A stretch of 58,852 nucleotides of DNA, from the NCBI GenBank assembly GCA_035283065.1, contig DATEUP010000275.1:1-58852 (forward strand), in the 5' to 3' direction. This DNA is from Thermoplasmatota archaeon. GTDB lineage: Archaea > Thermoplasmatota > DTKX01 > DATEUP01. This document shows positions 10 to 58,208 of the stretch, one piece after another (position 1 is the stretch's first letter; each line of letters begins with the position of its first letter). The notes beneath the pieces are model-generated. The model did not search any database and was not told the origin of the DNA. It worked only from the letters and a program-made list of their open reading frames with translations. A program made the position numbers and the translations under genes.

Positions 10-1905
10 GTGGCGTTCCTGCCGTGGACCTACGACCGCGCCCGCGGCGTGTGGCTTGCGCCCTCGAAGGACCTGTCGCTGATCATGCAGGCGTTCCCCG
101 GTGTGCGAATCCAGATGAACAAGTCCCTCGGGACCGAAGTAGCGCAAGCGAAGGAGAAGCGCGATGCTTCGGCGGCCGTGACGGCGCGCGGGGATCTTTT
201 GATCCCGGTCCCGGACGGCCTGGAACTCATGCCGTTCCAGGTCGCCGGCGTCGAGTGGATCGAGCGGTGCAGGGGGCGCGCGATGCTCGGGTGCGATATG
301 GGAACAGGCAAGACCATGCAGGCGCTCTCGTGGCTAAACCTTCACCCCGAGCATCGGCCGGCGGTGGTCGTATGCCCAAACAGCGTGAAGATAAACTGGC
401 AGCGGGAAGCGGAGAAGTGGTTGATCGACCCAAACGACCGCGTCGAGGTGGGTAAGGGCGGAAAGCCCAAGCCCGCGATCCTAAAGTCGGCCACCGTGCT
501 CGTGCTCAACTACGACATCCTGCACCGATGGGTAGAAGCGCTCGGGAAGGTCGCCGTCGCCATCCTCGACGAAGTTCACTACGTCAAGAGCCGCGACGCT
601 AGGCGGTCGGGTGCGGCCAAGACCCTATGCCGCAACGCCCGGCATGTCATCGCGCTTACCGGAACCCCGATCCTAAACCGTCCGGTTGAGGTCTGGCATC
701 AGGTGCATTGCATCGACCCGACCATCTTCCCCAACTTCGAGGAGTACGCCCGCGAGTACTGCGGCGGGAGCGGAAAGGGAAGGCGCGACCCGAAGGGACA
801 CGCCAATCTCGGGCAACTCGAGGAAGTGCTTCGGACCCGCGTGATGATTCGACGACGCAAGCAGGATGTACTCGACGATCTTCCCGAGAAGCGGCGCACC
901 ACGGTGTTGATGGAAATACCCATCACCGAGTACCAGGCGCACGAGCTGGAAGCGCGCGGCCGGGCCTCCCGGTTCAAGGAACTCAAGGAGGCGCTGCGCG
1001 GGATGCTAGAGGGCGTCGAGGATGAGGACGAACGCAAGCGGATACACGCCCAGAGCGTAGAGGGCCAAGAGGTCCCCAAGCTCCACGGCGCGCTCATGGC
1101 CGACATCGAGAATCTCAAGCAGGGCGCGGTCAACGCCAAGTACTCTCAGGTGATCGACTGGCTGAAGAACGCCGTCGAGCAGACGGACAAAATCATCGTG
1201 TTCGCCCACCACATCGCAATCCAGGACCGGCTCTTCAACGACCTTGAGGGCTACGGCGCGGCGCGGATCGCCGGGGGGATGAGCATCCAGAAGCGGCAGG
1301 CGAACATAGACAGGTTCCAGACGCAGGCCGACTGCCGGGTGATCGTCTGCTCGTTGGGCGCCGGCGCCTACGGGATCAACCTCCAGGCCGCCTCGCAGGT
1401 CGTGTTCGTCGAGTTGGGATGGAACCCGTCGCATCACGACCAGGCCGAGGACCGCGCGTACCGCAAGGGCCAGAAGAACGCCGTCAACTGCTGGTACATG
1501 GTCGCGCAGGGGACCATCGAGGAAGAGATCGCCCGGTTAATCGAGGCCAAGCGCGCTATCGTCTCGGCCGGCCAGGGAGACGTCGACCCCTACATCGAGC
1601 AGGACGGGATCATGGAGCGGGTGATAGACTACCTCGCCGGCGGGCCGACCGCGCATGTGGACCTGCCCGAGGCCGATCCCGACGACCCCGATTTTCACCC
1701 AAGTGAACAAGAAGCCGAGGATTGTGAACAGGACCCCGCCGAAGGTGAACAGGGCCCCGTTGAGGGAGAACGGCCCGGGCCTACGGAGCCCGCGGCGCCG
1801 CCCGATGAACCTGAACCGACCGACGAATCAACGCCGCCCGAGACAGCGCCTCCCGAAGACGAGCCGGAAACCGATCCAGAGGCTCAAGGCCCCGAAGGCC
1901 CCTGA
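10..1905 (+). CDS. SNF2/Rad54-family helicase/translocase; true 5' end probably at 58779 across the window junction
   Basis: 631-aa ORF opening at GTG. Motif I CDMGTGKT, motif II LDEVHYVK and LTGTPILNRP are present. C-lobe reads GINLQAASQVVFVELGWNPSHHDQAEDRAYRKGQ. The last ~80 aa form an acidic Pro/Glu-rich tail. Confidence 0.9.
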   Translation: MAFLPWTYDRARGVWLAPSKDLSLIMQAFPGVRIQMNKSLGTEVAQAKEKRDASAAVTARGDLLIPVPDGLELMPFQVAGVEWIERCRGRAMLGCDMGTGKTMQALSWLNLHPEHRPAVVVCPNSVKINWQREAEKWLIDPNDRVEVGKGGKPKPAILKSATVLVLNYDILHRWVEALGKVAVAILDEVHYVKSRDARRSGAAKTLCRNARHVIALTGTPILNRPVEVWHQVHCIDPTIFPNFEEYAREYCGGSGKGRRDPKGHANLGQLEEVLRTRVMIRRRKQDVLDDLPEKRRTTVLMEIPITEYQAHELEARGRASRFKELKEALRGMLEGVEDEDERKRIHAQSVEGQEVPKLHGALMADIENLKQGAVNAKYSQVIDWLKNAVEQTDKIIVFAHHIAIQDRLFNDLEGYGAARIAGGMSIQKRQANIDRFQTQADCRVIVCSLGAGAYGINLQAASQVVFVELGWNPSHHDQAEDRAYRKGQKNAVNCWYMVAQGTIEEEIARLIEAKRAIVSAGQGDVDPYIEQDGIMERVIDYLAGGPTAHVDLPEADPDDPDFHPSEQEAEDCEQDPAEGEQGPVEGERPGPTEPAAPPDEPEPTDESTPPETAPPEDEPETDPEAQGPEGP

Positions 1906-5713: not shown

Positions 5714-5926
5714 ATGGGGAACGCGATCAAGTGCAGCGGGTGCGGTTCGGTCGAGGTTCTCTGCCCTGAGTCCCCCTCGCCGGCGCCGCGCTGCCCGGAC
5801 TGCGGGAAGCCCAGGAAGGCACGGTCGCCCATCGGCGTCGGCGCATGCGGACACGTTCGCTGCGACTGCTCCGATGGGGCCTTCTACGGGCGCGAGGAGG
5901 TGTCGGACGCCGACCCCGGTTTGTAG
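5714..5926 (+). CDS. zinc-ribbon protein (70 aa)
   Basis: GGAGGTG SD. Two Cys pairs: CSGCG ... CPDCG. Confidence 0.6.
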   Translation: MGNAIKCSGCGSVEVLCPESPSPAPRCPDCGKPRKARSPIGVGACGHVRCDCSDGAFYGREEVSDADPGL

Positions 5927-5935
5927 GCCGAAGAC

Positions 5936-5964
5936 TTGACAAACGCTGCGTCAGAAGGTACGGT
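5936..5964 (+). promoter_or_regulatory. sigma70-like promoter TTGACA-N17-TACGGT
   Basis: Perfect -35 at 5936-5941. The -10 (5959-5964) is embedded in the operator-like site. Lies 31 nt upstream of ATG 5995. Confidence 0.45.
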
Positions 5965-5972
5965 ATCGTAAC
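5957..5972. promoter_or_regulatory. operator-like site GGTACGGTATCGTAAC (1 mismatch)
   Basis: Matches GGTACG-N4-CGTACC at 15 of 16 defined-plus-spacer positions. Overlaps the -10. Confidence 0.55.
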
Positions 5973-5994
5973 CTGTTGTTTTAGGAGGTACGCC

Positions 5995-7338
5995 ATGAGG
6001 CTCACGCATCTGAAGGTTTCCAACTTCCTCGGCCTCGAGGACTTCGAGCTCGAGGCCGGAAAGGTCGTCCTGGCTCGGGGGCCGAACGCCGCCGGCAAGA
6101 CCTCGATCATCAAGGCCATCAGCGCGGCCTTCGTGGGGGAGACCGACCCGAAGGTCATCCACCACGACGGCGAGACCGCCGAGGTGTTCGTCCAGCTCGA
6201 CAACGGGATGAGCATCCGCCGGGTGATCGGCGCGGGCGGCGCCACCCTGGACGTGCGGGACGCCGACGACGAGAAGGTCGCCAAGCCGCAGACGGTGATC
6301 AAGGCGCTGCTCGGCGCCCTCGCCTTCAACCCCGTCGAGTTCTACGCGCTCTCGGCGCGGGAACGCAAGCAGTACCTCCTGCGGGCGCTCGAGGTCAAGA
6401 TCAAGCGCCAGACGGTGGAGAAGTGGTGCGGGGAGGTTCCCGCCGGCGTCGACCTCGACCGCCACGGCCTCGAGGTCCTCAAGTCGCTCGAGGAGCACTA
6501 CTTCGCCCTCCGGCACGAGATCCACGCGAAGGCCCTGGACCGGGAGGGGGGAGCCAAGGAGATCGCGGCGGAACTGCCCGAGGGGTTCGCCCCCGACGTG
6601 GCCCGCTCCCTCAACGTCCACGACCTGATGGAGGTGGTCAACAGGCACGAGGCCGCCGAGGCGGCGCGCGCCGAGCGCACCGAGGCGGTTGCGGCCGCCC
6701 GCGAGGCCCTCGCGGCCCGCGAAGCCGAGGTGGAGCAACTGGCGATGCGGGTCGCCCGCGCCAAGGAACAGGTCAAGGCCGCGGTCGATGCCGTCGAGAA
6801 GACGAAGGGGGCGGTGGGCGAGGTTCGGGGCCCGGACGCATCGGCGGTCAAGGTCGCCCGCGAGACGCTGGCCGAGTACGACCGCACCAAGAAGGTCCTC
6901 GCCCGCCACGAGGAGATGACCCGTCTGATGGACGACGCGAAGACGGCCCGCGACGAGTGGGCGAAACTGGATGCGCTGGTCAAGTTCCTCCAGACGGAGG
7001 CGCCCAGGGAGATCCTCGAGAAGCTGCCGCCGGTGGCCAAGGGCCTCAAGATCGACGGCGAGAACCTCACCCTCAACGGGACCCCCCTCGACCATCTTTC
7101 CTCGGGCGAGCAATTGAGGTTCGCCGTGGAGATCGCCCGGGCCCTCGCCGGCGACCTCAAGCTCCTCTGCGTCGACGGGATCGAGCGGCTCGACCCGGAG
7201 GCCCGCGAGGCGTTCATGGCGCAGTGCAAGGGGGACGCCTACCAGTACGTCCTCACCGAGGTGGCCGGGGGGAAGATGAAGGTGACCTCGACGAACGGCG
7301 ACGTCAAGAAGGCCAAGCTGGCCGGGAGGAAGGCATGA
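5995..7338 (+). CDS. SMC/SbcC/RecF-like AAA ATPase with coiled-coil insert
   Basis: TAGGAGG SD. Walker A GPNAAGKTS, Ala/Glu/Arg-rich coiled-coil middle, signature LSSGEQLRF, Walker B LLCVDGIERLD. Confidence 0.8.
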   Translation: MRLTHLKVSNFLGLEDFELEAGKVVLARGPNAAGKTSIIKAISAAFVGETDPKVIHHDGETAEVFVQLDNGMSIRRVIGAGGATLDVRDADDEKVAKPQTVIKALLGALAFNPVEFYALSARERKQYLLRALEVKIKRQTVEKWCGEVPAGVDLDRHGLEVLKSLEEHYFALRHEIHAKALDREGGAKEIAAELPEGFAPDVARSLNVHDLMEVVNRHEAAEAARAERTEAVAAAREALAAREAEVEQLAMRVARAKEQVKAAVDAVEKTKGAVGEVRGPDASAVKVARETLAEYDRTKKVLARHEEMTRLMDDAKTARDEWAKLDALVKFLQTEAPREILEKLPPVAKGLKIDGENLTLNGTPLDHLSSGEQLRFAVEIARALAGDLKLLCVDGIERLDPEAREAFMAQCKGDAYQYVLTEVAGGKMKVTSTNGDVKKAKLAGRKA

Positions 7339-7619
7339 CCGAAGGTTGGATGGCTGAGATGCCAAGCGCGTCGCGGGTGTACCACTACATCGTGGACACC
7401 CGGAGCCTCTGCGGGAGGTGGGGCCTGTACATGGGGGAGTTGATGGGGTTCCGTTTGGGGAGGAGGGGGAAGGAGGACTGCGCCACATGCTACCGGAAGG
7501 CGCTTGAGCGCCAACCGCGATTCAAGGAACTCGTCGCCAAGTTGCGAAGGGACGGCGAGCCTTTACGCATCTCGCGGCAGAACGCCGCGAGGGTTATCGC
7601 AGAGGAGGCAATGCAATGA
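7335..7619 (+). CDS. hypothetical protein (94 aa)
   Basis: ATGA overlap with the upstream gene. Confidence 0.55.
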   Translation: MTEGWMAEMPSASRVYHYIVDTRSLCGRWGLYMGELMGFRLGRRGKEDCATCYRKALERQPRFKELVAKLRRDGEPLRISRQNAARVIAEEAMQ

Positions 7620-54304: not shown

Positions 54305-54750
54305 GCAGGCTTACGATAGTGCCGTGCGACCTGGATGAAGCGAACGCCTTCGTCGAACGGGTGCATCGTTACCACGGGCCTGTGGTCGGGCACAAGTTCT
54401 CCCTGGCGGTGACGGACGAGGCTGACGTGATTCGATGCGTAGCGATCGTCGGCCGCCCGGTCGCCCGGCACCTCGACGACGGATGGACGCTCGAGGTCAC
54501 CCGCGTCGCAACGGATGGGTGCCCGAACGCATGCTCTGCGCTCTACGGCGCTGCGCGTCGCGCGACCTTCGCCCTCGGGTTCCGTCGACTGGTCACGTAC
54601 ACCCTCCCGGCCGAAAGCGGGGCGTCCTTGCGGGGCGCTGGCTGGCGGGTCATAGGGGAGGCAGGCGGCGGAAGCTGGTCGCGGAAGGATCGGCCGCGGG
54701 TCGACAAACACCCGACGCAGGCGAAACTCCGGTGGGAGATTAGTTCGTGA
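54301..54750 (+). CDS. conserved methylase-associated protein (XF1762-like, recalled from memory)
   Basis: GTGA overlap. Pattern FVERVHRYHGPVVGHKF ... IVGRPVARHLDDGWTLEVTRVATDG ... SLRGAGW. Confidence 0.4.
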   Translation: MSRLTIVPCDLDEANAFVERVHRYHGPVVGHKFSLAVTDEADVIRCVAIVGRPVARHLDDGWTLEVTRVATDGCPNACSALYGAARRATFALGFRRLVTYTLPAESGASLRGAGWRVIGEAGGGSWSRKDRPRVDKHPTQAKLRWEISS

Positions 54751-55961
54751 GCATCCCCGAGGTTCTCGCCGGCTCCCGCTCCTGGCACGTCGAAACCGGG
54801 GACGCCCTCGCCGTGCTCCGGTCGATGCTCGACGCCTCGGTCCAGTGCTGCGTGACATCGCCGCCTTATTTTGGACTCCGCAATTATCAGGCTGATGGGC
54901 AGATCGGCCTTGAGCGCACGTTGCAGGAGTACGTCGCTAGGCTCGTAGAGGTCTTCGCCGAGGTGCGACGCGTCCTCCGCGAGGACGGGACGCTCTGGCT
55001 GAACATCGGCGACTGCTACAACGCCTACCCCGACAACCGAGGGACCGAGAGCGAGTACGCCGGCAAACGCAAGGAGATGGAGGCGCGATTCCCTGAAGGT
55101 TACGGCTTGATGGCCCCGTCCCTCAAGCCCAAAGACCTCTGCGGCATCCCGTGGAGGGTCGCCTTCGCGCTACAGGCCGATGGCTGGTGGCTGCGATCCG
55201 ACATCATTTGGGAAAAAAGTAACCCAATGCCAGAGAGCGTCCGGGACCGGCCAACAAAGGCGCACGAGTACATCTTCCTGCTGACGAAAAGGGATCGCTA
55301 CTTCTGGGACTCCGACGCGGTTCGAGAGCCACATCACTCCCAGAGCATCGCGCGCCGGAACCGCGCAAGAAGCGGGGGCAAGTACCGGGGGACGAACGGA
55401 GCGCAGCCGAAAGGCAACCCCCACTCCATCACGCTGGCGTTGGATCACTGCCTGCACCCGGCCGGCCGCAACATGCTGACCGTCTGGCGCATGGCGACGC
55501 AACCCTTCCCCGGCGACCACTTCGCGGTCTTCCCCTTCGAGCTGGCCGAGCGATGCATCAAGGCGGGAACTTCGGAGATGGGATGCTGCTCGCGGTGCGG
55601 CGCCCCGCGCATGCGGCGGGTCGAGCGGGAGCCTATGGTCATTCGCCGATCCGGGCGCACGCACGAGAAGGGGCGAACGCGATCGAGCGGCACCGTCGTT
55701 GAACCCCCGCGGGCGACGACGGTCGGGTGGTCTGCATCCTGCGACTGCGGCGCGGCCGGCGTGGGGTGCGTCGTGCTCGACCCGTTCTGCGGCGCCGGAA
55801 CCGCCGGCGTCGTCGCAACCCACCTCGTCCGCAGGTTCGTTGGGATAGAACTCAACCCCGAGTACGCCGAGATGGGCCGCGATCGGATCCGGCGTGGCTA
55901 CTACGCGCCGCATCCGACCGATACGGAAACGCCGCTGTTTGACGGAGCAGGAGCATGTTGA
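54747..55961 (+). CDS. beta-class DNA methyltransferase (N4-cytosine or N6-adenine)
   Basis: VTSPPY (motif IV) lies near the N-terminus. VLDPFCGAGTAGV (motif I) lies near the C-terminus. Confidence 0.8.
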   Translation: MSIPEVLAGSRSWHVETGDALAVLRSMLDASVQCCVTSPPYFGLRNYQADGQIGLERTLQEYVARLVEVFAEVRRVLREDGTLWLNIGDCYNAYPDNRGTESEYAGKRKEMEARFPEGYGLMAPSLKPKDLCGIPWRVAFALQADGWWLRSDIIWEKSNPMPESVRDRPTKAHEYIFLLTKRDRYFWDSDAVREPHHSQSIARRNRARSGGKYRGTNGAQPKGNPHSITLALDHCLHPAGRNMLTVWRMATQPFPGDHFAVFPFELAERCIKAGTSEMGCCSRCGAPRMRRVEREPMVIRRSGRTHEKGRTRSSGTVVEPPRATTVGWSASCDCGAAGVGCVVLDPFCGAGTAGVVATHLVRRFVGIELNPEYAEMGRDRIRRGYYAPHPTDTETPLFDGAGAC

Positions 55962-56422
55962 CGTTCTACATCATCGCAGGGATCGCCATCGTGTTGACGG
56001 CATGTCTCGCCGAGGATATTGGTAAAGTTTTGTTCGACGGGTTGCACAGGTGGTGGCGCATCCGTCGTGCCTGTAAGACTATTAACCGCATCGTCTCGGA
56101 GGAAGAAAAGAACCTCCCCCCTCTCCCCGAGAAGATGCACGCGCCGAGCCTGTGGTACAACGGGCCGGACGTAACGCCCGAATTCCCCGAGATCGTAGTC
56201 GCGTGCGCTCCCGACGATCTGTTCACGAACAGTCGCGGCGTGACGCACTTCAAGGGCTGCTACTGCGTGTATACGCCTGACTACCCGGAAGCATGCTCTT
56301 GCCCCGCTCCCTACGGCAAGCACTCTCTGCCGTGCCCATACCAGCCACCGCCCGAACCGCCCTGCCCGCACGATCACGTGGACCCGGATTGGGCCGATAA
56401 AGAATTCGACAGGATGGCATGA
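55955..56422 (+). CDS. membrane-anchored Cys/Pro-rich protein (155 aa)
   Basis: N-terminal TM FYIIAGIAIVLTACL. GGAGCAGGAG SD. Confidence 0.55.
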   Translation: MLTFYIIAGIAIVLTACLAEDIGKVLFDGLHRWWRIRRACKTINRIVSEEEKNLPPLPEKMHAPSLWYNGPDVTPEFPEIVVACAPDDLFTNSRGVTHFKGCYCVYTPDYPEACSCPAPYGKHSLPCPYQPPPEPPCPHDHVDPDWADKEFDRMA

Positions 56423-57738
56423 AGGAGACCGCCGATGACGTGGTTGTACCTCCCCTCCGAGTGCTTGCCCTCTGCGCCGGCGGGGGCGGAATCGAACTCG
56501 GTCTCCAGCTCGTCCTCGGGCGCGAGGGAGTACGCACCGTGGGGTACTGTGAACGGGAAGCCTACGCAGCGGCCGTCATCGTGGCGCGGATGGAAGACGC
56601 GGCCCTGGATCACGCGCCTGTCTGGGACGACGTTGGAACCTTCGACGGCCGACGCTGGCGTGGAGCGGTGGATCTCGTCGCTGCAGGCTTCCCCTGCCCT
56701 CCGGTTTCGGTCGCCGGCAAGCGCAAGGGCGACAACGACGAGCGCTGGCTCTGGCCGGACGTCTTCCGGGTCTGGCAGGAGACGGGCGCGCCGTGGCTCT
56801 TCGTCGAAAACGTCGCCGGGCTCCGCTCATCCGACATTGGGGATCGCAGTAGCGTTCCTGTGCTCGGAGGGATACCTGACGAGTGGGCAGGGGCTTCTGA
56901 GCGGGCGCTACAACTCATACTGCGAGACCTTGCCGCGGGCGGGTACTCTGCGGAATGGATCTCTCTATCGGCGGAACAACTGGGTGCCCCGCATCAGCGG
57001 GATCGGGTGTTCCTCTTGGCCCACGCCGATGAGCGGGGCGGCCACAAGGACGGCGCAGGGGGGCATCCAGCTATCGCAGGCGGCACGGGGGTGGCCGACG
57101 CAGGACGCGGGGACCAGTCAAAACGGCCACGGCCGGCGGGGCGGACGCCCGGACAACGGGAGCCAGAGCGGGGAGCGGCTGGAGGCAACGGCCAAGATGT
57201 GGCCGACCCCGCCGGCGGGCGACGTCGCCGGCGGGCGGACCACCAAGGGCAAAGCCCGGCAGGGGGAAACGGGGCTGAGGAAGGTGGCGCAGAAGTGGCC
57301 GACCCCCAAGCAGAAGACCGGCGGCCCGGAGGGGCGGGCGTCGCGGGCCCGAAGGGGAGCCGGCGGGGAAGACCTCGACGCCAGCGCCCGGATGTGGGGG
57401 ACGCCGCGCGCGGCCGAGTGGAAGGGGGCGGGGCCGGTCGGAAGCTCCTCGCACCAGCACTGGCTGGATCACAAGTACCTGACGGCGCAGGCGACGCTCT
57501 TCCGCTGTGGCCCCCCGGACGAGACGAGTACGACGCCTGGCGAGACGTCCTCGCCGTCCGACCCGACCTCGCGCCGGCAGTTGAATCCACGCATGGCAGA
57601 GTGGCTGATGGCATGGCCAATTGGATGGAGCGACTCCAACTTATCGGGAACGGTGTTGTGCCGGTCTGTGCAGCAGTGGCGTTCCTCGTCATTGCCCATC
57701 GTTCTGGCCTGTCTGGAATCTTTAAGGAGCAGCCGTGA
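56419..57738 (+). CDS. DNA (cytosine-5)-methyltransferase
   Basis: Motif I LALCAGGGG, IV GFPCPPVS, VI FVENVAG, VIII QRDRVFLLA, X IGNGVVP. The ~170-aa Gly/Arg/Ala-rich middle looks non-native. Confidence 0.75.
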   Translation: MKETADDVVVPPLRVLALCAGGGGIELGLQLVLGREGVRTVGYCEREAYAAAVIVARMEDAALDHAPVWDDVGTFDGRRWRGAVDLVAAGFPCPPVSVAGKRKGDNDERWLWPDVFRVWQETGAPWLFVENVAGLRSSDIGDRSSVPVLGGIPDEWAGASERALQLILRDLAAGGYSAEWISLSAEQLGAPHQRDRVFLLAHADERGGHKDGAGGHPAIAGGTGVADAGRGDQSKRPRPAGRTPGQREPERGAAGGNGQDVADPAGGRRRRRADHQGQSPAGGNGAEEGGAEVADPQAEDRRPGGAGVAGPKGSRRGRPRRQRPDVGDAARGRVEGGGAGRKLLAPALAGSQVPDGAGDALPLWPPGRDEYDAWRDVLAVRPDLAPAVESTHGRVADGMANWMERLQLIGNGVVPVCAAVAFLVIAHRSGLSGIFKEQP

Positions 57739-57748
57739 AAGCGTGTAA
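56435..57748 (+). CDS. co-extensive +1-frame ORF (WPTP-repeat sequence): overprinted gene or frameshifted methylase segment
   Basis: AAGGAG lies 7 nt upstream of ATG 56435. Five W-P/G-T-P/Q repeats and LNPRMAEWLMAWPIGWSD. High third-position G+C. Confidence 0.4.
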   Translation: MTWLYLPSECLPSAPAGAESNSVSSSSSGAREYAPWGTVNGKPTQRPSSWRGWKTRPWITRLSGTTLEPSTADAGVERWISSLQASPALRFRSPASARATTTSAGSGRTSSGSGRRRARRGSSSKTSPGSAHPTLGIAVAFLCSEGYLTSGQGLLSGRYNSYCETLPRAGTLRNGSLYRRNNWVPRISGIGCSSWPTPMSGAATRTAQGGIQLSQAARGWPTQDAGTSQNGHGRRGGRPDNGSQSGERLEATAKMWPTPPAGDVAGGRTTKGKARQGETGLRKVAQKWPTPKQKTGGPEGRASRARRGAGGEDLDASARMWGTPRAAEWKGAGPVGSSSHQHWLDHKYLTAQATLFRCGPPDETSTTPGETSSPSDPTSRRQLNPRMAEWLMAWPIGWSDSNLSGTVLCRSVQQWRSSSLPIVLACLESLRSSRESV

Positions 57749-58208
57749 TAACTGCGGGGAAGAATTACTCAAACGCCCACAAGAGTGGCCAGCACGCTTT
57801 GCTGCCCGAGAATTTTGCAACCGCTCGTGCGCTACGAGGGCAAGGGGTGTAAATCCCGTCACCACCAGGTATCGGCACATCAAGGTTGGAGGGCGGGCGT
57901 ACCAAGAGCACAGATGGGTGATGCAGAACGCCATCGGGCGTCCGCTGCGGAGCGATGAGTTTGTACATCACAAGAACGGGAACAAGCTGGACAACCGACC
58001 GGAGAATCTTGAAGTGCTCGACCCGGTGACGCACGGCCGGGAGCATCACCTGATTCTTCCTTTGAGGAAGCCCTGTGTTGTATGTGGCCGGGAGTTCACC
58101 CCTCACAAGACGAAGCGACGGCGGGCGAAGGTGTGCGGTCCAGAATGTAGGGAGGCTCTAAGGAGGCGCCCCCGTACCTCCAAGAAGGAACGCGATGTCG
58201 TTGCTTGA
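57735..58208 (+). CDS. HNH endonuclease
   Basis: AAGGAG SD and GTGA overlap. Motif HHKNGNKLDNRPENLEVLDPVTHGREH flanked by Cys pairs. Confidence 0.85.
   Translation: MKACNNCGEELLKRPQEWPARFAAREFCNRSCATRARGVNPVTTRYRHIKVGGRAYQEHRWVMQNAIGRPLRSDEFVHHKNGNKLDNRPENLEVLDPVTHGREHHLILPLRKPCVVCGREFTPHKTKRRRAKVCGPECREALRRRPRTSKKERDVVA

Follow-up and report, generated by a model that had tools for sequence, protein, structure and literature searches.

A cytosine-5 methyltransferase gene with two co-extensive, conserved reading frames that may encode the two chains of one enzyme

The window analysed here is the whole of a 58,852-nucleotide (nt) stretch of DNA from a Thermoplasmatota archaeon (assembly GCA_035283065.1, contig DATEUP010000275.1; 66% G+C), and the locus in question is a cytosine-5 (C5) methyltransferase gene along which two long frames are open on the same strand. 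An earlier note on this DNA had drawn attention to these co-extensive open reading frames (ORFs), frame A and, displaced by +1, frame B, the latter open for 437 codons, and both were found where it had placed them (Table 1). In the ATGA at which frame A begins, its start codon and the stop of the preceding ORF overlap. The AAGGAG-N7-ATG start that had been ascribed to frame B is present, its Shine-Dalgarno-like hexamer falling inside frame A, and the hand-counted third-position G+C of about 90% for frame B over 57180-57600 agrees with the 0.88-0.95 obtained across 57139-57558.

Frame A carries the C5 motifs I, IV, VI and VIII and the terminal GNGVVP (motif X) that had been reported for it. Over 56 A homologues, the residues C93, E130, N131, V132 and R196 are invariant, as are G410, N411, G412, V413 and P415 of motif X. 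The match to PF00145 spans residues 14-204 (E = 1e-23) and only model positions 2-163 of 324, and the match to TIGR00675 covers only positions 2-162 of 329 with a score of 67.6, below the cut-off of 100.65; phrog_363 covers residues 12-426. The middle of the polypeptide is of low complexity, as had been described, with Gly, Ala and Arg making up 56% of residues 208-360 (57040-57498). Consistent with this layout, the predicted local distance difference test score (pLDDT) of an AlphaFold2 (AF2) model is above 90 for most of residues 10-207 and below 50 for residues 212-359, and helices are predicted again at 371-389 (pLDDT 73-87). A conserved C-terminal element lies in this part of the chain, with W374 invariant and P365/P366 conserved in at least 90% of the same 56 homologues. 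A Foldseek search with frame A matched M.HhaI, M.HaeIII and DNMT1 over ~195 columns, which corresponds to the large domain only. A variable region and motif IX together with a full-length profile match were not found in the frame A polypeptide, which, judged by profile, is on its own an incomplete, half methylase. Short A-type relatives of 299-330 residues, named 'DNA cytosine methyltransferase' by NCBI, are paired with a correspondingly shorter frame B.

Searches of frame B against Pfam and NCBIfam gave no match, and phrog_1008 matches residues 154-270 (E = 2e-22). The five W(P/G)T(P/Q) units that the earlier note had read in this frame, and LNPRMAEWLMAWPIGW after them, were all located; the repeat has the consensus L..xA..WPTPxAxD, a median spacing of 31 residues and between 1 and 11 copies across the family. 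Upstream of the repeats, the frame begins with an N-terminal module of 87 conserved residues. The block around LNPRMAEWLMAWPIGW is the best-conserved one in B, with the family form RRLNPxFVEWLMGWPxGWTD, and lies over RPDLAPAVE...RVADGMANWME of frame A. Thirty aligned B homologues share the M.WL(Y/F).P N-terminus, SWRGWKTRPWI.RLSGT, the WxTP repeats and RRLNPRFVEWLMGWPIGWTD; both the ATG and the N-terminus are conserved, with W3 and P7 invariant. The AF2 model of B, built with 30 homologues, places a short helix ahead of three of the five WxTP units and a confident helix at the C-terminus, and a sequence search of the PDB with the B profile returned chance matches to MS2 coat protein only.

Table 1 Coordinates of the two frames, of their motifs and constrained regions, and of other features of the window
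Feature	Position	Strand	Remarks
Frame A ORF	56419-57738	+	439 aa, ATG; predicted C5 cytosine methyltransferase chain, catalytic and alpha-like
Frame B ORF	56435-57748	+	437 aa, ATG, +1 relative to A; putative repeat-rich partner, beta-like chain
AAGGAG, Shine-Dalgarno-like hexamer	56422-56427	+	within first frame-A codons, 7 nt 5' of frame B ATG
Motif I, LCAGGGG	56470-56490	+	frame A; inside PF00145 match
Motif IV, GFPCPP	56686-56703	+	frame A
Motif VI, ENV	56806-56814	+	frame A
Motif VIII, QRDRVF	56995-57012	+	frame A
Conserved C-terminal element, LWPPGRDEYDAW...RPDLAPAVE	57505-57585	+	frame A
Motif X, GNGVVP	57646-57663	+	frame A; overlaps start of B C-terminal helix
N-terminal module	within 56438-56695	+	frame B; MTWLYLPS..., SWRGWKTRPWITRLSG (56579-56626), VERWISSL (56660-56683)
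LPRAGTLRNG	56930-56959	+	start of B C-terminal module in this sub-lineage
WxTP units	57017-57028, 57092-57103, 57200-57211, 57296-57307, 57395-57406	+	frame B
Motif-IX-like element, (SRRQ)LNPRMAEWLMAWPIGW(SD)	57572-57634	+	frame B; LNPRMAEWLMAWPIGW itself 57581-57628
B C-terminal helix	57644-57739	+	B residues 404-435; AF2 pLDDT 72-88
R1	56438-56695	+	both frames constrained; A motifs I-IV and B N-terminal module
R2	56696-57007	+	only A constrained (motifs IV-VIII: ENV, QRDRVF); B a Ser/Arg/Gly-rich spacer, merely kept open
R3	57008-57529	+	only B constrained (five WxTP units); A a free Gly/Ala/Arg tether
R4	57530-57661	+	both frames constrained; B motif-IX-like element and A motif X
G6 run	57058-57063	+	present; in a gapped, poorly alignable, lineage-specific stretch of the family alignment; frameshift role unsupported
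PF01555 N6/N4 methylase	54747-55961		upstream of the dual-coding gene
155-aa ORF, no family	55955-56422		upstream; stop overlaps frame A start
HNH_3 endonuclease	57735-58208		downstream; GTG start (57735) overlaps stops of A and B
Very large ORF, 2140 aa	18850-25272		
Very large ORF, 1031 aa	29762-32857		
Very large ORF, 1627 aa	36376-41259		
Very large ORF, 1156 aa	41256-44726		
Helicase	10-1905		phrog_62

On synonymous recoding of A, ~4.6 stops are expected in the +1 frame (excluding the stop forced by the ATGA start), and recoding of B leads to an expectation of ~6 in the -1 frame (excluding A's own terminator). In other genes of the window, an alternative frame can stay open for as many as 221 codons (+1) and 450 codons (+2), the longest in a gene of 496 codons. 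At 5845-7338 (+), 5884-7488 (-) and 6423-7619 (+), a gene of PHROG family 1499 has a 450-codon open +2 frame and a 534-residue antisense ORF, which shows that DNA of this composition produces long alternative-frame ORFs by chance. Because of such chance open frames, the case for dual coding rests on conservation and not on openness.

To follow the two frames beyond the window, viral contigs, genomes and metagenomes were drawn on for ~325 related loci in three sets: 165 picked by similarity to frame B, 80 by similarity to frame A, a choice that is unbiased with respect to the presence of frame B, and 81 from metagenomes. Both frames are full length in 153 of the 165 loci, where B is always A+1, and in 68 of the 81 metagenome loci; among those picked through frame A, B occupies the +1 frame in 80/80 and both frames are full length in 74. 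Most exceptions in the three sets are contig ends, and within these sets neither a B-less member of this A subfamily nor a B without A was found. In 143/150 loci the B ATG follows an A-frame start codon, mostly ATG, at a distance of exactly 4 nt (NTGNATG), a spacing from which the window departs with its 16 nt and its own AAGGAG, and the ends of A and B are 13 or 16 nt apart in 124/165. The sources include many Alphaproteobacteria, Burkholderia phages, Solirubrobacterales, Nitrospirota, Longimicrobiales and Hydrogenedentota. The paired frames recur in hundreds of phages and prophages. Near-identical copies in independent assemblies (P0001, P0067) keep both frames, and isolate genomes agree. 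Frame B is thus not younger or more restricted than frame A, as de novo overprinting would have it, given its presence in all 80 loci picked through A and in distant phyla.

Sequence searches with frame B led to the same genes. By tblastn against phages, only phi1026b-like Burkholderia phages were matched, within the annotated C5 methylase and in its +1 frame, which begins with MVWLFIPS 4 nt past the annotated start and stays free of stops over the entire gene; tblastn against plasmids gave one partial match only. A protein search recovered 66 homologues, many with ~35% identity across 90-97% of frame B; most of those listed are 300-500 residues long, and among those listed only two chimeric ORFs contain a Pfam domain. 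At E up to 1e-30, an exhaustive search with the B profile matched at most 6,849 representative proteins, such counts being upper bounds because at least one top match, P0187, is spurious: this 2350-residue protein consists of 41 tandem copies of a 57-residue Lys/Arg-rich unit and reaches E = 3e-116 through repeated weak matches. Homologues whose alignment with frame A alone runs over the full length, which the earlier note had named together with a lack of database support for B as evidence against a second protein, do exist, but the support for B is massive. Two B homologues, P0207 and P0240, have a ~200-residue insertion within the N-terminal module; the methylase frame that overlaps it would then also carry an insertion, between motifs I and IV, which may be an intein or a mobile element.

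Selection on the two frames was analysed in an alignment of 12 divergent lineages, in which conservation at each codon position was compared with synonymous-recoding simulations, and the gene divides into four regions, R1 to R4 (Table 1). For R1, the third-position identity of A is 0.59 vs 0.43 simulated (z = 15) and the amino-acid identity of B is 0.49 vs 0.32 (z = 18). R2 follows the A-only null, with values of 0.41 vs 0.41 for A (z = 0.6) and 0.296 vs 0.277 for B (z = 2.2); synonymous sites are therefore saturated among the lineages, and R2 serves as a valid internal control. The excess returns in R3 (A, 0.53 vs 0.37, z = 12; B, 0.37 vs 0.215, z = 16) and in R4 (A, 0.625 vs 0.418, z = 11.5; B, 0.52 vs 0.31, z = 15.7). 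Within R3, the excess identity amounts to 0.05-0.14 at B third positions, which are A first positions, compared to 0.22-0.41 at B positions 1 and 2, and the amino-acid identity of A is lower than that of the non-coding third frame. All the same, A is open across R3 in 12/12 lineages (joint P ~1e-13), as B is across R2 (12/12; joint P ~1e-6); each frame is kept open by selection over the stretch where its own sequence is free. All 12 lineages are free of stops in A and in B and in no other of the six frames, the remaining four totalling 70-131 stops. An antisense gene as the source of the conservation was considered and rejected, every antisense frame being full of stops.

Conservation and purifying selection extend to both ORFs in an interleaved pattern, and the two always co-occur. 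The earlier suggestion that the locus is dual-coding, with an overprinted WPTP-repeat protein, is borne out by the large family of B homologues, the conserved ATG and N-terminus and a selection on B that exceeds what A imposes, and we regard genuine dual coding as very probable. The opposite view, in which frame B is a non-functional shadow ORF that is held open by high G+C and conserved only by way of A, would suit a window of this composition with its long alternative-frame open runs, and some B motifs (SAPA, ASPA/ASRA) do appear from the sequence to be the +1 reading of LCAG and GFPC. However, three of the four regions reject the recoding null at z = 12-20 and the fourth conforms to it, the codon-position pattern of R3 is that of B and not of A, the B ATG and N-terminus are conserved, and the other four frames are full of stops, all of which makes a shadow ORF barely credible.

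A single A-B-A polypeptide would arise from a +1 shift after motif VIII and a -1 shift between motifs IX and X, whether programmed or as the mark of indel errors or a pseudogene, and two such compensating frameshifts had been the other reading offered by the earlier note. The conservation profile does run roughly A, B, A, the corresponding chimera has the canonical order of motifs I-VIII, variable region, IX and X, with its IX and X portion colinear with M.HhaI, and rare frame-switching ORFs exist (P0002, P0042, P0344). Against this, hundreds of independent assemblies, isolate genomes included, have both ORFs open over their full length, and the ATG and the N-terminal 87 residues of B are under selection from the first codon (R1, z = 15-18). 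The invariant A residues of WPPGP...W (W374, P365/P366) sit in the part that would be skipped, and motif VIII of A shares nucleotides with the first WPTP of B. Read by eye, the sequence around 57600-57650 contains no X_XXY_YYZ heptamer, and the G6 run that had been put forward as a candidate site, although present, is gapped and lineage-specific in the family and not conserved; neither a conserved slippery site nor a second frame that is dispensable upstream was found. With the chimera as the query, no single-frame relative scores above the A-type proteins. Frameshifting, of whatever origin, is thus a very improbable explanation of the locus.

The frame-switching ORFs differ among themselves. 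P0002 (JGI), a near-identical metagenome variant, has A residues 1-222 joined to B from residue 235 (…HPAIAGG followed by RPDNGSQ…), and the join would fit a ~52-nt deletion between GGCGG-like repeats (window ~57085-57137) that creates a single-chain A-B fusion. The order in P0042 is PF01555 C-terminus, B N-terminus and A motifs VI-VIII, and P0344 has the N-terminal part of A followed by the C-terminus of B; these two may owe their structure to indel errors in the assemblies concerned or may be real frame-switched variants.

In order to relate frame B to methylation, we turned to its best-conserved block, for which the earlier note had proposed a likeness to the element that precedes motif X in C5 methylases (motif IX). 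When the B family was aligned with M.HhaI by hhalign, using a sequence checked to be identical to PDB entry 10mh_A, this block gave the sole match, to residues 269-291 (motif IX; P = 0.09, weak), and with motif X of A appended the match became colinear with HhaI 266-313 (motifs IX and X; P = 0.011, weak). Natural variants lend the likeness further support. On two Logan contigs from separate samples (P0135/L328, 1999-3053, and L329; SRR14194044 and SRR15167843), the motif-IX element is found inside the A chain, where RLNPAFVEWLMGWPEGW stands between WPPGP...PDLAPA and motif X; the chain reads WPPGP...PDLAPAIDG-RLNPAFVEWLMGWPEGWS, a 45-residue spacer and then RADRLRLIGNGVVP, and the +1 ORF keeps R1 and the WPTP repeats and lacks motif IX. 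A further Logan contig (P0324/L247, SRR29900440; 1393-1719 and 1395-2891) has a short, tether-less A fused in frame to the C-terminal half of B, and the R1 module persists there as a separate, overlapping +1 ORF of 108 residues, an architecture that is the sole case among the 81 metagenome loci.

A further natural variant is seen in phi1026b-type phages, in which B is fused to a ParB-like DNA-binding protein. In phage phi1026b (L001 2539-4659, NC_005284), the B ORF continues without a stop past the methylase and reads in frame into the annotated ParB-like gene to form a 706-residue B-ParB fusion ORF; the annotation of NC_005284 gives the methylase and a ParB gene from an internal ATG only. Newer records (PV072766, OM892879) name the region 'chromosome partitioning protein'.

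We hypothesise that the locus encodes a two-chain C5 methyltransferase of the M.EcoHK31I kind, with an overlap over the full length and with the variable region transferred to the second chain, and we think this a fairly likely reading. One stretch of DNA would then encode two complete same-strand proteins offset by one base. A would consist of an S-adenosylmethionine-binding and catalytic core (motifs I-VIII), a disordered tether of ~150 residues of free sequence, a short conserved element and motif X, parts that together would make up the 'large domain' of M.HhaI-like enzymes without a constrained variable region and motif IX. B would comprise the 87-residue N-terminal module, a spacer that need only stay open, the five WxTP units, the motif-IX-like element and the C-terminal helix. 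The two proteins would share the DNA by turns, the unconstrained spacer of each lying over a constrained domain of the other, so that only the two ends are doubly constrained. Translation would begin at two neighbouring starts, and the pairs that lie 4 nt apart in most relatives presumably use one common ribosome-binding site. In such an enzyme, A would bind S-adenosylmethionine and catalyse the reaction, with motif IX, and probably also the part that recognises DNA, contributed in trans by B.

If dual coding is genuine, B could alternatively act independently of methylation, as a DNA-binding, partition-related or anti-defence factor, with A being the whole enzyme. Several observations favour this alternative and at the same time weigh against a two-chain enzyme. 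The motif IX similarity of B is statistically weak, and the AF2 model of B alone is mostly disordered (mean pLDDT 49), because of which its fold cannot be compared with the small domain of methylases. Repeats in 1 to 11 copies are unusual for a classical target-recognition domain, and short repeated linear motifs in a largely disordered chain without a Pfam or NCBIfam family would suit an independent factor, as would the ParB-like fusion in Burkholderia phages. As R1 is kept as its own ORF in L247, this module may act beyond docking B to A. Other points count against the two-chain enzyme in their own right: on the A-B-A chimera, on a chimera of B with the A C-terminus and on the natural single-chain variants, PF00145 never extended past model position ~168; a hidden Markov model search of the PDB with the profile of the IX and X chimera gave chance matches only; and the informative variants are rare, with one contig for L247 and two for L328/L329. 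That B is translated, associates with A and is needed for methylation or its specificity is what we infer. On the other side, B was never seen without A, nor this A subfamily without B, A has no constrained variable region or motif IX, the C-terminal half of B is fused to A in L247, and the motif-IX element occupies the canonical place inside A in L328/L329. An independent role for B is therefore possible and, in our judgement, unlikely.

M.EcoHK31I, the closest parallel to the proposed two-chain enzyme, has an alpha chain of 309 residues and a beta chain encoded by a nested ORF of 176 residues. Its alpha chain contains motifs I-VIII and X, its beta chain, encoded in another frame inside the alpha gene, contains motif IX, and activity needs both chains (PMC2836561, PMC3404938). 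Frame A likewise has motifs I-VIII and X with a second chain in an alternative frame of the same DNA, and the short frame-A relatives match the size of the alpha chain. In contrast to the nested beta gene, the second ORF is here co-extensive (437 vs 439 codons, starts 4-16 nt apart) and has an extra conserved N-terminal module; moreover, the constrained repeat region belongs to the second chain and the alpha-like variable region is a free tether, whereas the target-recognition domain of M.EcoHK31I is assigned to alpha. The comparison follows the described motif layout.

Other C5 enzymes share single aspects of the arrangement. Monomeric M.HhaI and M.HaeIII (PF00145/TIGR00675) have the same catalytic core fold and motifs as frame A, and their order of motifs I-VIII, variable region, IX and X is regained here by reading segments of A, of B and of A again in succession, but no single polypeptide at this locus holds all the parts. 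In M.AquI, the overlap is limited to the ORF ends. This C5 methyltransferase is naturally split in the variable region, and its parts assemble into one enzyme (PMC3404938). The split is serial, with motifs I-VIII on alpha and IX-X on beta, so that the small subunit has motif X, which here belongs to the catalytic chain. An HNH endonuclease inserted out of frame, the 'ShiLan domain', has been described in actinophage methylase genes (PMC11855218). There, too, a stretch of a phage methylase gene has a real coding frame unlike the methylase frame, and the in-frame reading is a tolerated loop; that element, however, is a mobile insertion that overlaps locally and serves homing, an unrelated function, in contrast to an overlap that spans the whole gene in every member of the subfamily and apparently supplies part of the enzyme. 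The C5 methyltransferases of the Bacillus phages SPR, phi3T and rho11s contain several short tandem target-recognising modules, in varying number, in their variable region. These are single polypeptides in one frame. Their likeness to the WxTP repeats is an analogy only, and a lead.

A still broader proposal combines these points: among known families of same-strand protein genes that overlap along their whole length in double-stranded DNA phages and bacteria, this one would be the largest and the longest, and it would encode an obligate two-chain enzyme with the WxTP units as exchangeable recognition modules. We consider this combination speculative and rather unlikely as a whole. Should it be true, a DNA-recognition subunit would be written in +1 across an entire catalytic gene, and gain or loss of WxTP units would retune or multiply the specificity of phage methylation and leave the catalytic chain untouched, because A reads the repeats only as free tether.

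To our knowledge, protein genes that share more than 1 kb of the same strand, with the overlap conserved between phyla, are hardly known except in small viruses, and gene callers do not allow such overlaps. Literature searches found no earlier description of this A/B family. Protein names at NCBI and JGI and the phi1026b annotation give only 'DNA cytosine methyltransferase' where named or inspected, and the whole frame-B protein family is therefore missing from annotation. The interleaved constraint offers a clean natural system for studying the constraints of dual coding and translation from two starts, and cloning of the annotated frame alone may yield inactive or mis-specified phage methylases. 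If the two-chain reading is true, M.EcoHK31I, long an isolated curiosity, would be the tip of a very large phage-borne family.

The dual-coding gene is placed in a tight, operon-like row that consists of a PF01555 methylase, an ORF of 155 residues, A/B and an HNH_3 endonuclease (Table 1). Elsewhere in the window, a search against PHROG at E up to 1e-5 gave no match for the four very large ORFs of 2140, 1031, 1627 and 1156 residues, and a helicase was assigned by its PHROG family.

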